Shown here one piece after another: positions 2,795 through 21,524 of a stretch of 21,722 nt of DNA; the first letter of the stretch is position 1, and each line of letters starts with the position of its first letter. The notes under the pieces are model-generated. The model was not told where the DNA came from. It was given only the letters and a program-made list of their open reading frames with translations, and did no database searches. Made by a program: the position numbers and the translations under genes. The stretch is from a virus (lineage: Duplodnaviria > Heunggongvirae > Uroviricota > Caudoviricetes): IMG/VR virus record IMGVR_UViG_2778261217_000005; one strand, given 5' to 3'.

Positions 2795-5387
2795 TTGCAT
2801 ATTCCTTAGCCCAGCGGGGCAGTGATAATGTCTTAATAGCTGGCCATTCATCGGTATTCAGGCAGTCAGACAGGGTTCTCAGATTGCGGTGATATTCCTG
2901 TTGACCTGCCAGTTTTGCTTCTTCGCCCATCATGAAAATTTCAACCGGATAACGTCCGCATTCAATAGTTGTGCTGGCAACCAGAAAAACGAAAGTTGGC
3001 TGCACTCCAAACTGTGCTTCATAACCGTCACTGTAGAATGCATCCTGAACGTGATAGCGGTAGTCGTAATAAGCGGTTTTGAATCGTTGAATATCCGCCG
3101 TAGTTTTCACGTCCATGATCCAGTGAAATTCAGGGATAATTTTGTCCGGACGGCACCGACACAAAATTCCTGTTTCAGGATCTTCCCAGTAAATTGATGA
3201 TTCAGCGTGTCCGGCGCTTTCAACAAGCCATTGCCCCAGCGGCAAAGCCATAACGCTTTGATACATGAGTTCAATTTTCCGGCCTTCTTCCGCAGTGATA
3301 ACCGTTTTTCCTGTGCTTGCGCATTCCATCAGAAACGCTTTCTCTTCTTCTTTTCCGGCGTTTGTACGGCGGTTAAATTCAGGTGCTACGATAAAGCGGT
3401 TACTGAATTCTTCCGGTTCAAGTACCCGGCAGTGGAAAGCGGTTCCTAAATCGAGCGTTTTTGTCTTTGTGGTGTCCACGGGGGCATTTTTACGCCACAA
3501 ATATAGTGCCGGAGTATCAGCAATGTCATCGAGCTGAGACTTACTGACACCGGGACCCGCGTGGTAATTCTCATTCGAAATTCCGTAATAAATACCTGGC
3601 TCTATGTCTTCTACGATTACGGGATCTGCGACTTCGCCAGTTTCATCACTGCAATCGCGATGCGGATCGCTGCCAGCATTCTCATTGTGCGGATGTTCAG
3701 CGCCTTCCATTTCCTCCGGATCATTTTCCTTAGCTTCAACCTGACTCTCTTCATCGAATGTTTCCTGGTATGTTGCGTCGCCCATCACCGCACCACAGTC
3801 AGGGCAGTTATCCCCGCCAGTCTGGCCGCAGGCATTGCAGGCTATTTCCGGTTCCTGTTGCACTACTGGCTCAGGTTGATTCATATCCGGGCTGGTTTTT
3901 TCCGTTTCTGGCTGGTTCTGGTACACACAATCGCGAGTCTGGATCCCCTTTACCCATTTCGGATCGTTCGGGTCGCTAATTCCGTCAACAAATTCACCAC
4001 GTGATGCAGCAAGCAATTTATCGGCATCGACAGGATTTTTTGATGGAATGTTTTTCCGGGCTTCATGGAGTTCTGCCCGCAGTTCCTGATATTTCGCATC
4101 AACAGAATTTACCTGTGACTGAGCATCCAGCGGCTGCGTGTCCTGATGATGTTCAGTTGCGTCCGGTTCCATTGTTTCAGCCTCTCCCTGTTCAACTGCC
4201 GTTGTTCCAGATGGTTGCGGTTTTTCTTCATCATCCTGTTTTCCTTCTTCTGTTACTCGCTGCGGCATCGGGGCAGAGGAGCGACCGCAGGCAATATCCA
4301 CGATTTCCGGATCAGGGTTGGCATGATCGGTTTCAGTCAGTACTTTGTTCAGATATTCAGTGACGTGCGCGGGGATGACCTCGATCCCAATTGGTGCTTC
4401 TTTTACGGACGCAACCACGATGGCGCGGGAATAATCCAGCCCGCCAGGCATGGTGATGAATTTGTCGCGGAAAACAGAAAAGGGCGGTTTATTTTCAGCG
4501 ATAATTTCCTCAATGCGTTTAGCGTGTGCCGGATGAAGGTTATAGATGTCCAGATCCATTGAACGGGCCAGTACGCCAGTGGCTACGTCGCGCGCCAGTG
4601 ACGTCAGATCGTGTACGAAACCTTCGCCGCGATCGGTGAGGTTTCCGCCGCCAGCATTAGCACCGGAAGCCGTGCGAGTGATGTGTGAAACACGATTACC
4701 CTTCATCCACTCTTTTGTCAGCAGTCCTCGATCGGTGTAGTCAGCGTTCAGGTATGCTTCGAAAAAAGCAGTTATCAGTCCCAGGTTTGAATTACCAGGA
4801 TTAGGGAAAACTTTGTCAGTGTCACGAACCAGTTTGTGGAGTTCGCGAATTTCCAGCGGGTCGAGCAGGCTGGTTTTGTGGGAAACAGCCAGGGCAGTAA
4901 CAGCCGGTAGTTCTTCAGCCCGAGCAATGTGTAATGCCTGGAGTCCGTCGCGTGAAACGTGCGTTACCGGTTTTTCGCTGCCGTGTTGAGCAAGCCAACG
5001 AATGGGCAGTTCCTGGCCAGAAATTGGGAGTAGCATATTCTCCTCAATCTCAGTCATGTCTTCGCCGTTGACGTTGGTATTGCCTTGATAGTGAGCGTTG
5101 TCTGGTGCTGCTCCCGGTTTTAGTTCCCATGTCATGGAGTCTTTGCTGAGTTGATAGCGTTCACTCCAGGTAAAATCGATCTCACCTTCAGCGGGCAGGT
5201 CATTAACGACAGGAAAATTCGTGGCAACAGCTTTAAAATAGCTGCTCAGTTTTTTACCTGACTTAACGATCAGGTAGTCCAGAGTGGCACAGGTCGATTC
5301 AAAATCGTCGCTTGCCCACAGGACGACGTCAGGTTCACCGGATGATTTTTTCGCTTTCCGTAACAGGAAGAGTGGTTTTGTGCTCAT
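2787..5387 (-). CDS. recE: RecE exonuclease VIII (866 aa)
   Basis: 866-aa ORF with acidic low-complexity middle region and C-terminal nuclease region; classic recE-recT pair. Confidence 0.9.
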
Positions 5388-6230: not shown

Positions 6231-6651
6231 AATTATCTCCATTTTTACAAATGAACTTTGTTGATGCGGTGCCTGGTGCCTCCAGGTGACTGCAACCAGT
6301 TAACAATTACAGTCGGCTTTCCCACCCAAACCAATAAGGACTAACATGACTTTTAACTGTGCCACGTGCGCTTAGCCGCATTCACCGCATCACAAAATTC
6401 ACTTTAAAAAGGGCGGACATCAGCCGAACTTCAAGAAAAAAACTGATGCCGCCAGGACTACACACAGCAATGTCGTTATTTACAACCGGAGGCGCACTCC
6501 CACCATTTAAATTTAACAGACAAGACCGACTCTTTATGGATATCGGAAATGCGCCTTCGTGTTGCGCCCAGTTTTATTTCACCACCTCCGGGCTTCGGTG
6601 GTTTCTGCTATACCCCTACAGCGAGAATATTGAATTAATCCAAATAATGGA

Positions 6652-6804
6652 TTAGCAAGTATTTCTGGCAAGCCAGCGAAGTGCGCCCGTTTCAGTTTTG
6701 AATGTCTTGCTTTTGGTATAAGTCATGGCAGTGAACGTTCCATCCTGGTTGGGGAACACGCCGCACACCAGGGATTCGTTGTTGCCGAGGTCGATTTTTT
6801 GCAT
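6652..6804 (-). CDS. ydaF: Small protein YdaF-like (50 aa); not in ORF track
   Basis: Hand-translated: MQKIDLGNNESLVCGVFPNQDGTFTAMTYTKSKTFKTETGALRWLARNTC; weak SD. Confidence 0.5.
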   Translation of the reverse strand: MQKIDLGNNESLVCGVFPNQDGTFTAMTYTKSKTFKTETGALRWLARNTC

Positions 6805-6814
6805 TTTGCGAATC

Positions 6815-6949
6815 TCACATCTTGTTGCTGCGTATAGCGACTTCTGCCTGCCAGAAATCCCAGTCGTTGCTGCGTAAAGCCTGCACAGCCTGGTTGTAAG
6901 TGATACCGCAACAATCCATCAAATACTGAACTACTTCGTAATGCACCAT
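6815..6949 (-). CDS. ydaG: Small protein YdaG-like (44 aa)
   Basis: Internal start MVHYEVVQYLMDCCGITYNQ preceded by AGGGGAGAG SD. Confidence 0.55.
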   Translation of the reverse strand: MVHYEVVQYLMDCCGITYNQAVQALRSNDWDFWQAEVAIRSNKM

Positions 6950-7117
6950 CTTATCTCTCCCCTTAACGCCGGGTGGCGGAACTGAAACCTGCTGCACTGC
7001 AAAATCTGAACCCTGCCGTCATGTTCATACGCCTCGGGCTGGCTACTTAACCCCTGACCACTGCCTGGTAACTCGAAGTATTGCCCTGCGTTCTGTGGGG
7101 CGGGGTGGGTTGGTAGG

Positions 7118-7170
7118 TATATAATGTACTTTGTGTTCATTGATGTAAAGTACTTTAAGTACATTTTGTG
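7118..7170. promoter_or_regulatory. Operator-like repeat cluster (TATAAT, ATGTACT, palindrome AAGTACTT, AAGTACAT) in the non-coding gap between ydaG and the repressor gene
   Basis: Motifs read directly; the same ATGTACT heptamer recurs in the racR-ydaS divergent region. Confidence 0.35.
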
Positions 7171-7239
7171 TGTAAAAAAATGAGATGGGATAAAGTGAAG
7201 CACAAACCCGGAGGGGGACGCTACCGGATTTATGCTGGT

Positions 7240-7659
7240 TTAAGAGGCTTTTTGTTTTTTCTTTCGTGCTAATTCTTCGTAAATTGCATTGTACTTCTGT
7301 TTTTTCTCCTCAAGAGTTTTTAAAAGTTCATCTGTCTCACTGTCAGGGAGCTCGTCCAGAAGGTCAATGATGATTTTTTGTCTTGGATTTAACTCCTGAT
7401 AGAAACGTACCTGTCCACTTTCTTCTGTATCCTCTCCCAAAAGATAGGTTGGTGTTGTTCCAATGAGTGTTGCTAATTCCCTTAATTTCTCTCGGCGAGG
7501 AATTGTTTCGCCATTAAACCATTTGCTAACCGCTTTTGGTGTTAATTTCATTCGACGGGCAATTTCTGCCTGCCTTCCATGTTGTTCATAACCAGCGTTT
7601 TCACAGGCTAGCGCAAGCCTACTGGCGAACTCTTTACGCGCTTTATCTTCATGAACCAT
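7240..7659 (-). CDS. racR: Prophage repressor, XRE-family HTH (RacR-like), 139 aa
   Basis: N-terminal HTH region (QAEIARRMKLTPKAVSKWFNGETIPRREKL), Lys/Glu-rich C-terminus; divergent from a Cro-like gene. Confidence 0.75.
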   Translation of the reverse strand: MVHEDKARKEFASRLALACENAGYEQHGRQAEIARRMKLTPKAVSKWFNGETIPRREKLRELATLIGTTPTYLLGEDTEESGQVRFYQELNPRQKIIIDLLDELPDSETDELLKTLEEKKQKYNAIYEELARKKKQKAS

Positions 7660-7738
7660 AAGTTCAATGATATTCGCTCTTGAATGTACTGTCAGTTCTG
7701 TTATAGCATGTACTCAAAGTTCACATTGTGAGGGTGAT
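7660..7738. promoter_or_regulatory. Divergent promoter/operator region between repressor and cro-like gene; two ATGTACT copies 24 bp apart (7684-7690, 7708-7714)
   Basis: 79-bp intergenic with TTGAAT and TATAGC hexamers and repeated heptamers. Confidence 0.45.
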
Positions 7739-7993
7739 ATGAACCAGAAAACACTTGAAGATGTAATCAAAACTGTTCGCGTTTCTGTTGTGGCCGACGT
7801 TTGTGGTGTCAGCCAAAGAGCAATCTACAAATGGATGGATAACGGAAAATTGCCTCGCACAGAATATACCGGCGAAACAAATTACGCTGAAAAAATCGCT
7901 CATGCATCAAACGGATTATTTTCTGCCGATGTAATTTTAACTATTGGCAGAAATAAAACTACTACGAAAAAGCTGATGGGAGTTGATTCATGA
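7739..7993 (+). CDS. ydaS: Cro-like HTH protein YdaS-like (84 aa from internal ATG)
   Basis: MNQKTLEDVIKTVRVSVVADVCGVSQRAIYKWMDNGKLP HTH; GAGGGTGAT SD. The longer ORF start at 7667 would lie 8 nt from the racR start and is unlikely. Confidence 0.65.
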   Translation: MNQKTLEDVIKTVRVSVVADVCGVSQRAIYKWMDNGKLPRTEYTGETNYAEKIAHASNGLFSADVILTIGRNKTTTKKLMGVDS

Positions 7994-8412
7994 AAATCAA
8001 GCATGAGCACATCGAGTCAGTGTTGTTAGCCCTGGCAGCCGAAAAAGGGCAGGCATGGGTAGCCAATGCCATTACTGAAGAATATCTGCGCCAGGGGGGC
8101 GGCGAATTGCCCCTGGTACCAGGCAAGGACTGGAATAATCAGCAGAACATCTATCACCGTTGGTTAAAAGGTGAAACGGAAGCGCAAAGGGAAAAAATTC
8201 AGAAACTGATCCCTGCAATTCTGGCAATCCTTCCGCGCGAGCTGCGTCACCGACTCTGCATCTTCGATACCCTGGAACGCCGTGCATTACTGGCGGCGCA
8301 GGAAGCGTTAAGTACGGCAATTGATGCGCATGATGATGCAGTCCAGGCCGTTTACCGGAAAGCGCATTTCAGCGGCGGCGGGTCTTCCGACGATTCTGTC
8401 ATTGTTCATTAA
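7990..8412 (+). CDS. ydaT: YdaT-like protein (140 aa), CII-like position
   Basis: MKIKHEHIESVLLALAAEKGQAWV...; its ATG overlaps the ydaS stop (ATGA). Confidence 0.75.
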   Translation: MKIKHEHIESVLLALAAEKGQAWVANAITEEYLRQGGGELPLVPGKDWNNQQNIYHRWLKGETEAQREKIQKLIPAILAILPRELRHRLCIFDTLERRALLAAQEALSTAIDAHDDAVQAVYRKAHFSGGGSSDDSVIVH

Positions 8413-20830: not shown

Positions 20831-21524
20831 TGATTTTTGCGCCTTTATTCTGACTCACGGGCGACCGGACAAAGTTCTGACTTACCGGACGTTGCGTCGT
20901 GCTGGCTATACCGGGAAAATTTTTATCGTTGTTGATGATGAAGATAAGACACGGCATCAGTACATGGCTGAATTTGGTGAACAGGTGCTGGTATTTTCCA
21001 AAGCCGATATTGCCAGTCGTTTTGACGAAGCCGATAATTTTGGTGACCGCCGCTCAATTTTTTACGCCCGTAATGCCTGTTTCGACCTGGCAAAACTGGT
21101 CGGGTGTAAATACTTCATTCAGCTCGATGATGATTATCACGAGTTCCAGTTTCGGGTGGATCGCAACTATGACCAGGCCTATTTCCCGATAAGGAAACTG
21201 GATGCGATCCTTTCTGAAATGCTGGCGTATTACGAATCAATACCCGCGCTTTCCATCGCTATGTCGCAGGGCGGGGATTTTCTTGGTGACAATGGCGGCC
21301 ATGCTTCGTGGGTGAAACGCAAGGCAATGAACAGCTTTATCTGTTCGGTTGATCGACCGTTCTCATTCATGGGGCGCATTAACGAGGATGTGAATACGTA
21401 CACGAATCTCGGTCGCTGTGGTGAATTGTTTATGACGATCGGTGCTGTCCAGTTAGGGCAGAAACAGACGCAGAAAAACAGCGGCGGAATGACCGAGCTG
21501 TATCTGGATTCCGGAAGCCGCTGA
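20823..21524 (+). CDS. Hypothetical protein coupled to ParB-like gene (YdaY-like), 233 aa; two DxD-like acidic motifs
   Basis: ATG overlaps upstream stop (ATGCGTGA); SD GGAGGAGGAGGA; motifs VVDDED and QLDDDY; no recognisable methyltransferase motifs. Confidence 0.55.
   Translation: MRDDFCAFILTHGRPDKVLTYRTLRRAGYTGKIFIVVDDEDKTRHQYMAEFGEQVLVFSKADIASRFDEADNFGDRRSIFYARNACFDLAKLVGCKYFIQLDDDYHEFQFRVDRNYDQAYFPIRKLDAILSEMLAYYESIPALSIAMSQGGDFLGDNGGHASWVKRKAMNSFICSVDRPFSFMGRINEDVNTYTNLGRCGELFMTIGAVQLGQKQTQKNSGGMTELYLDSGSR

Follow-up and report, generated by a model that had tools for sequence, protein, structure and literature searches.

Predicted HK022-type operators on both sides of the repressor gene in a Rac-type prophage

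Introduction

The CI repressor of phage HK022 binds cooperatively at both OR and OL, and looping between OL and OR has been described in vivo (PMC8053113). Three oR sites, two or three oL sites, pR and pL are annotated in the database records of HK022 (GenBank X16093) and HK75. In the Rac prophage of Escherichia coli K-12, the operator footprinted for RacR is (T/A)TAGGC-n3-GCCTA(T/A) (PMC9638921). Leaderless repressor transcripts have been reported for lambda cI, PaaR2 and RacR (PMC8630535, PMC9638921).

The DNA studied here, referred to below as the window, is the whole stretch of 21,722 nucleotides taken from IMG/VR record IMGVR_UViG_2778261217_000005. It is a Rac-type cryptic prophage, and a near-identical region of strain AR436 is annotated with intR, xisR, ralR, recT, recE, kilR, ydaF, two helix-turn-helix genes, ydaT, ydaU and ydaV. 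A sequence-only reading of the window had reported ATGTACT-type repeats on both sides of the repressor gene and had likened them to OR and OL operator sets that could allow repressor looping. We report here that these repeats are parts of five 15-bp dyads, which are very probably the operators of a 139-aa repressor in what appears to be an HK022-type lambdoid immunity switch of this Rac-type prophage. The protein-DNA code that would control a toxic gene set of the Rac-type prophage (kilR, recET, ydaT) can now be assigned.

Results

Heptamers and dyads around the repressor gene

Both direct reading and an exact search of the window placed ATGTACT on the plus strand at 7124-7130, 7684-7690 and 7708-7714, exactly where it had been reported. 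The same search located AAGTACTT at 7148-7155 and AAGTACAT at 7157-7164, the latter holding a fourth ATGTACT in minus-strand orientation (7158-7164), and a fifth, distant copy was found at 20959-20965. AAGTACTT and AAGTACAT had been described as related palindromic elements; their positions are right, but AAGTACAT is not a palindrome, and rather than two separate elements they are the two halves of a single operator, OL2 (7148-7164).

A motif enrichment test against the whole window, proposed as a check of the original observation, gave a divided answer. The total number of heptamers is without significance (5 observed and 2.34 expected, with at least 5 in 8 of 100 shuffles), and hexamers containing GTAC showed mild enrichment only. 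Their clustering, on the other hand, exceeds chance: four of the five ATGTACT copies fall inside the 369 bp of non-coding DNA that flank the repressor gene, for which a post-hoc binomial test gave P = 4e-7.

The functional unit appears to be a 15-bp imperfect dyad and not the heptamer that had been taken as the motif. Five dyads of the form TG(T/A)AC-N5-GT(T/A)CA, each at 0-1 mismatch, flank the repressor gene, two to its left and three to its right (Table 1), a set that differs from the elements originally listed. Each of the heptamers at 7124, 7684 and 7708 consists of a left half-site (of OL1, OR2 and OR1, respectively) extended by one flanking base and one spacer base. When the dyad TGWAC-N5-GTWCA was searched for with at most one mismatch, seven matches were found in the window compared with 2.04 expected, and five of these seven lie within the two non-coding stretches flanking the repressor gene (Poisson P = 4e-10).

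The right half-site of each operator (GTTCA or GTTCT) had been overlooked in the sequence-only reading. So had the third right-hand site, TGAACCATAAGTTCA (7652-7666), which contains no heptamer because it carries TGAAC instead of TGTAC.

An independent selection of the same sites came from a weight matrix for which only operators of other phages were used (19 in total), namely those of HK022, Omnitron, Kp4862-1 and a Providencia phage. With this matrix the five sites rank first to fifth among the ~21,700 positions of the window, at 13.4-20.4 bits, the next best position scoring 10.0. Random windows generated with a first-order Markov model contained 0.17 sites at or above 13.4 bits, and the occurrence of five such sites in the flanking non-coding DNA has a Poisson P of 1.5e-15.

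Other motifs were considered as a source of the repeats and rejected. The YdaT-box is a different motif, with one perfect copy at 7983-8000, and the PaaR2 repeat GTTTAGTAA showed no enrichment in the window and has no copy in the immunity region.

Table 1. Features of the immunity region, in window coordinates; scores are from the matrix trained on other phages, and the operators and promoters are predicted
Feature	Position	Strand	Sequence or elements	Score (bits)	HK022 counterpart	Remarks
OL1 operator	7125-7139		TGTACTTTGTGTTCA	13.4	oL site, 2201-2215	Perfect TGWAC-N5-GTWCA; covers PL spacer and first 2 nt of -10
OL2 operator	7149-7163		AGTACTTTAAGTACA	16.9	oL site, 2225-2239, AGTACCAATAGTACA	Adjoins PL -35
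OR3 operator	7652-7666		TGAACCATAAGTTCA	20.4	oR3, 3000-3014 (identical)	Best matrix score in window; holds repressor start codon (CAT, 7657-7659) and predicted PRM start point
OR2 operator	7685-7699		TGTACTGTCAGTTCT	16.5	oR2, 3033-3047, TGTACTATCAGTTCC	Fills PR spacer
OR1 operator	7709-7723		TGTACTCAAAGTTCA	17.5	oR1, 3057-3071	Between PR -10 and cro-like ribosome-binding site; over PR start point
PL-type leftward promoter	7121-7149	minus	-35 TTTACA (7149-7144), 17-nt spacer, -10 CATTAT (7126-7121)			
PR-type rightward promoter	7680-7707	plus	-35 TTGAAT (7680-7685), 16-nt spacer, -10 TATAGC (7702-7707)			
Probable PRM	7667-7695	minus	-35 CTGACA (7695-7690), 17-nt spacer, -10 TATCAT (7672-7667)			-35 inside OR2
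Immunity repressor gene	7240-7659	minus				139 aa; HK022-CI-like helix-turn-helix N-terminal domain and DicA-like helical C-terminal domain
Cro-like gene	7739-7993	plus				84 aa; 62% identity to HK022 Cro over 73 aa
Swapped immunity cassette (compared with K-12 Rac)	~7111-7983					~870 bp; from pairwise alignment

Conservation of the operators across nine loci

The claim that OL-like and OR-like operator sets lie on either side of the repressor gene is strongly supported, as the five dyads are positional homologues of the annotated oL and oR of HK022, whose operator positions were taken from the GenBank features and from PMC8053113. By blastn against phage genomes, positions 7499-7909 of the window are ~70% identical to the cI 5' end, OR and cro of HK022 and HK75. 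The alignment of the window with HK022 runs column for column through both operator sets.

We compared nine loci: the window, HK022, HK75, Citrobacter phage Omnitron, Klebsiella phage Kp4862-1, E. coli phage Tritos, two Salmonella prophages and one metagenome contig. The start-to-start spacing is the same in all nine, with 33 and 24 bp in the series OR3-OR2-OR1 and 24 bp between OL1 and OL2. The half-sites are invariant over the nine loci, and the N5 spacers and the DNA between sites are variable. Even individual peculiarities are kept throughout: the AGTAC...GTACA form of OL2, the imperfect right half GTTC(C/T) of OR2 and the repressor ATG carried in the spacer of OR3 were each present in 9 of 9 loci. 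The distance from OL2 to OR3 ranges from 494 to 1319 bp over the same loci. In the Salmonella relatives a HigB/HigA-like toxin-antitoxin pair sits between the repressor gene and OL, and therefore OL appears to travel with the module and not with the flanking genes.

The repressor

The 139-aa repressor shares 47% identity with HK022 CI over residues 4-102 (99 aa), the HK022-CI-like part being its first ~75 residues. Its recognition region, LTPKAVSKWFNGE, is identical in the repressors of the window, Omnitron, Kp4862-1 and the Providencia phage, and differs by a single conservative V/I change in HK022 CI. This recognition helix occurs together with the dyads in every relative, irrespective of the C-terminal domain.

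The C-terminal part is of another kind. Pfam gives helix-turn-helix domains only for the repressor and the S24 part is missing from the alignment, so that no S24 peptidase domain was found in it, whereas an S24 LexA-type domain is present in the CI proteins of HK022, Omnitron and Kp4862-1. Over residues 30-137 the repressor is 29% identical to K-12 DicA, and the DicA model NF007257 scores 56.8 bits on it, below the model cutoff of 101. An AlphaFold (AF2) model with a mean pLDDT of 82.5 has five helices in the N-terminal domain, followed by a disordered linker (77-86) and a C-terminal part made of two helices (92-103 and 106-138). A PDB sequence search and a Foldseek search with the AF2 model returned generic XRE-type helix-turn-helix matches only, which are uninformative on the C-terminal oligomeric state. 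Because a short DicA-like helical domain stands in place of the S24/LexA-type domain, RecA-mediated self-cleavage of this repressor is unlikely.

Promoters and their overlap with the dyads

The PL-type promoter was found by a consensus scan and is placed with respect to the operators just as the annotated -35 and -10 of HK022 pL are. Its transcription start is predicted at ~7114, and ydaG-like, ydaF, kilR, recE, recT, xis and int genes lie downstream according to the annotation. The PR-type promoter aligns column for column to the annotated HK022 pR (TTGACT/CATAAT), and a TG at 7699-7700, read directly from the sequence, precedes its -10 (extended -10); the consensus scan did not list it, because the -10 TATAGC lacks the conserved final T. 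Transcription from PR would be expected to start near 7714. The putative PRM matched 10 of 12 positions in the consensus scan. It would start at or beside the repressor ATG (7659), and the repressor mRNA is thus probably leaderless.

The placement of the sites is non-random, they overlap promoter hexamers in the way annotated for HK022, and they are homologous to the annotated HK022 operators.

A scan of 6700-8100 found no intrinsic terminators; a strong hairpin without a clean U tract follows the repressor stop codon. An Rfam search of 6400-8200 gave no match in the operator regions, and the PL leader (6945-7116) folds with a stability no greater than that of shuffled sequence (z = +1.39).

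An immunity cassette within a Rac backbone

Pairwise alignment with K-12 Rac indicates that the immunity cassette is exchanged in an otherwise Rac-type backbone. The homology ends after GCGGGGTGGGT, at ~7110, near the predicted PL start, and resumes at TGATTCATGAAAATC, at ~7984, inside the YdaT-box; in megablast, the match to K-12 extends no further than query position 216, corresponding to 7115 in the window. Both operator clusters lie just inside the cassette, the left edge of which is just outside OL1. YdaT is 98% identical to K-12 YdaT. A literature search for an HK022-type cassette in a Rac prophage found nothing specific, and the cassette is described in none of the papers retrieved.

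Alternative explanations

That the five dyads are operators of the 139-aa repressor has to be weighed against four other readings. According to one of them, the operators are inherited and no longer work, the module of a cryptic prophage being in decay and the repressor either not made or not binding. This would agree with the defective state of the Rac-type prophage, with the off-consensus -10 of PR and with the absence of the accessory operators OL3 and OFR. We nevertheless regard it as improbable. The reading frames of the repressor, the Cro-like protein and YdaT are intact, the five dyads retain both of their half-sites, and phage Tritos, the genome of which is complete, has an annotated CI 100% identical to the repressor. 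Moreover, at a query coverage of at least 80% the cassette occurs in 1047 of 5426 complete E. coli genomes, and as the leftward operon has an annotated killing protein, KilR, derepression should be selected against.

It is very improbable that the dyads are used mainly by the Cro-like protein or by the CII-like YdaT instead of the 139-aa repressor. Cro shares the operators of the repressor in lambdoid switches, the Cro-like protein is 62% identical to HK022 Cro, and K-12 YdaT footprints lie in the racR-ydaS intergenic region (PMC11879457). However, shared use by Cro is expected and forms part of the main explanation, and the YdaT motif, TTGATT-N6-AATCAA, is different and has its single perfect copy away from the dyads. 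It is, furthermore, the recognition helix of the repressor that accompanies the dyads in every relative.

Hardly any weight can be given to the dyads being RacR binding sites. The cluster to the right of the repressor gene had been placed in a divergent racR/ydaS promoter region, a naming that the Rac-type backbone and the near-identical ydaT would favor but that proved wrong, as the two genes are not racR and ydaS. In BLASTP searches, the repressor matches K-12 RacR over 33 helix-turn-helix residues only (E = 1e-4), and the Cro-like protein has no meaningful similarity to K-12 YdaS, with an 18-aa match at E = 0.028; the DNA homology to K-12 Rac is interrupted over the very same region, from ~7110 to ~7984. 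A comparison with published RacR binding sites, suggested as a further check, would fail for the wrong reason, since the repressor and Cro-like genes are not racR and ydaS. The core TAGGC-n3-GCCTA of the published operator (PMC9638921) has no match in the window with up to one mismatch, in contrast to five in K-12, where two of these dyads follow racR and the other three lie between racR and ydaS. At the sequence level, the identity of the dyads with RacR sites is refuted.

Finally, we see practically no case for the view that an A+T-rich heptamer recurs by chance, and without function, in intergenic DNA that is itself A+T-rich: the insignificant heptamer total and the mild enrichment of GTAC hexamers would suit it, but the placement is non-random, the complete dyads contain right half-sites of which the original observation made no use, a matrix from other phages selects exactly these five sites, sites and spacing are conserved where the surrounding DNA is only 67-73% identical, and half-site positions do not mutate as freely as spacer positions across the relatives.

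Discussion

A proposed mechanism

With the five dyads taken as operators of the 139-aa repressor, a scheme for the switch can be proposed in which repressor dimers would bind the five 15-bp imperfect dyads. OL1, in the spacer and -10 of the predicted PL, and OL2, at its -35 edge, are 24 bp apart, and their occupancy would shut off the leftward ydaG-ydaF-kilR-recET-xis-int operon. OR1 and OR2, also 24 bp apart, cover the start point and the spacer of the predicted PR, and occupancy there would shut off the cro-like gene, ydaT and the replication genes to the right. OR3, placed 33 bp from OR2 over the repressor start codon and the predicted leaderless PRM start, may serve for negative autoregulation and also be bound by the Cro-like protein. 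We infer that the repressor actually binds at the five dyads, and the order in which the operators would be filled is conjectural in the same sense. Since the predicted PRM -35 lies within OR2, binding there might regulate the repressor gene in either direction. In K-12, silencing of racR induces ydaS/T as well as the equivalent leftward genes (bioRxiv 10.64898/2026.09.06.749655), which by analogy fits this general scheme.

Looping between OL and OR, which are 503-584 bp apart in the window, is possible. The cooperativity and looping described for HK022 are not transferable here, because the C-terminal domain of the repressor differs and OL3 and OFR are absent: no site with at most 2 mismatches or at least 9 bits was found at the equivalent positions. 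The domain that is replaced in the window repressor is the one that mediates dimer-dimer contacts in HK022 CI.

Two kinds of repressor on one operator code

A tentative extension of these results, to which we would give a little less than an even chance, is that repressors of two kinds share one HK022 operator code in nature, an SOS-cleavable CI with an S24 domain, represented by those of HK022, Omnitron and Kp4862-1, and a repressor with a DicA-type C-terminal domain and without OL3/OFR, represented by that of the window. If so, about one in five complete E. coli genomes would harbour a Rac-type prophage that RecA cleavage does not induce and that an antirepressor probably controls. Such strains would be immune to phages of HK022 specificity and would have kilR and recET silenced via five sites, and any OL-OR looping would need a different oligomerisation surface.

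Operator results obtained with K-12 RacR/YdaS cannot be transferred to strains bearing the cassette, despite their Rac-like ydaT and flanks. The assignment also leads to predictions, namely cross-immunity with phages of HK022 specificity and induction independent of RecA cleavage of the repressor. Two points are of mild interest, the natural swap of a repressor domain while the operator code is conserved and the frequency of the cassette in E. coli.

Comparison with known systems

The closest likeness is to HK022 and HK75, with which the window shares the 15-bp dyad, an identical OR3, the 33/24 and 24 bp spacing, the overlap with PL and PR, and a homologous DNA-binding domain together with Cro. 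The differences lie around this core. The CI of HK022 ends in an S24/LexA-type domain and the window repressor in a short DicA-like helical domain; OL1 and OR1 are 584 bp apart in the window and 856 bp in HK022; the gene downstream of cro is ydaT in the window and cII in HK022; and the prophage backbone is Rac-type, unlike that of HK022. Moreover, HK022 has OL3 at 2278-2292, 53 bp from OL2, and OFR at 3324-3338, after cro, neither of which is present in the window. As far as sequence allows a classification, the switch would have the features of the HK022 operator set except for the S24 domain and OL3/OFR.

With the Rac prophage of K-12 the window has in common the backbone and the slot occupied by the switch, ydaT and the YdaT-box being retained, and also the general arrangement, in which three dyads lie between the divergent genes for the repressor and the Cro-like protein and two more lie downstream of the former. 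The operators are nevertheless unrelated (TAGGC-n3-GCCTA in K-12), and the repressor and Cro-like proteins are non-orthologous.

The DicA/DicC system of Qin and the PaaR2/YdaS system of CP-933P likewise have short repressors without a RecA-cleavage domain and OR- and OL-type sets (PMC10448788, PMC8630535). The C-terminal domain of the window repressor resembles that of DicA, with a similar architecture in the AF2 model, and CP-933P has a toxin-antitoxin pair after the repressor gene, as seen in the Salmonella relatives of the window. DicA and PaaR2 differ from the window repressor in DNA-binding specificity.

Compared with lambda, the window has the same divergent PRM and PR with three operators, the same PL with operators beyond the repressor gene and the same 24 bp as spacing of the cooperative pair, as well as a leaderless repressor mRNA, which is a prediction only for the window. 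It differs in the sequence and length of the operators, in having two OL sites where lambda has three, in the 33 bp between OR2 and OR3, in an OR2 that overlaps the predicted PRM -35 where that of lambda abuts it, and in an unrelated C-terminal domain. Judged on these sequence comparisons, the switch belongs with the ordinary lambdoid OL/OR systems, in the specificity class of HK022.

A chimeric repressor and RacR-type dyads downstream of racR

To judge from its sequence, the window repressor is an evolutionary chimera that joins an HK022-CI-type DNA-binding domain to a DicA-type C-terminal domain. The C-terminal half is encoded at window 7240-7440 and was compared with the repressors of the loci L003, L006 and L007. 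Relatives that share the recognition helix and the operators carry an S24 peptidase domain in place of the DicA-type C-terminal domain.

In K-12 Rac (L002), two RacR-type dyads were detected downstream of racR, 25 bp apart and at a position equivalent to OL. In the RacR literature, the only operators we found were O1-O3, in the racR-ydaS spacer. Silencing of racR in K-12 has been reported to induce kilR, recET and other leftward genes (bioRxiv 10.64898/2026.09.06.749655), an induction that the two downstream dyads could explain.

Features of the window and of related prophages
Feature	Location	Sequence	Strand	Context
YdaT-box, perfect dyad	window 7983-8000	TTGATTCATGAAAATCAA		encompasses ydaT start codon (7990)
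RacR-type dyad	L002 2724-2736	TAGGTAATGCCTA		K-12 Rac
RacR-type dyad	L002 2749-2761	TAGGCTATGCCTA		K-12 Rac
Untranslated leader	window 6958-7115			PL to ydaG-like gene
DicF-like small RNA	window 6411-6466		minus	RF00039 match
Stable hairpin	window 7199-7236		minus	immediately 3' of repressor stop codon
HigB-toxin/HTH (HigA-like) pair	L012 3053-3720			Salmonella prophage
HigB-toxin/HTH (HigA-like) pair	L013 3088-3755			Salmonella prophage

RNA features of the leftward region

Among the 3798 E. coli genomes that match the PL leader, most do so at 90-96% identity, and the leader is usually unannotated. It showed neither a stable fold (z = +1.39) nor an Rfam match. Farther along the leftward operon, the ydaF-kilR interval contains a DicF-like RNA in the window, whereas in K-12 Rac it contains sieB. 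This RNA scored 39.1 bits against RF00039 (E = 2.5e-7), under the gathering score of 48, and it keeps the terminator hairpin, with a diverged 5' seed region. The hairpin following the repressor gene has a folding energy of -19.7 kcal/mol (z = -4.07), and none of 200 shuffles folded equally well; it lacks a clean U tract and was not called by the terminator scan. A possible role for this structure would be to keep PRM transcripts insulated from the PL region.

The cassette edge and the Salmonella relatives

Alignment with K-12 Rac placed the YdaT-box exactly on the swapped cassette's right-hand junction. Its first half reads ATGATT in K-12, whereas the window has the CP-933P consensus TTGATT-N6-AATCAA (PMC11879457, PMC9986795); the K-12 YdaT footprint region near the ydaS promoter has no counterpart in the window. 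In the two Salmonella prophages, the HigB/HigA-like insertion separates the short repressor gene from OL and pushes OL and OR about 1.3 kb apart; this arrangement of repressor and toxin pair resembles the paaR2-paaA2-parE2 module of CP-933P.
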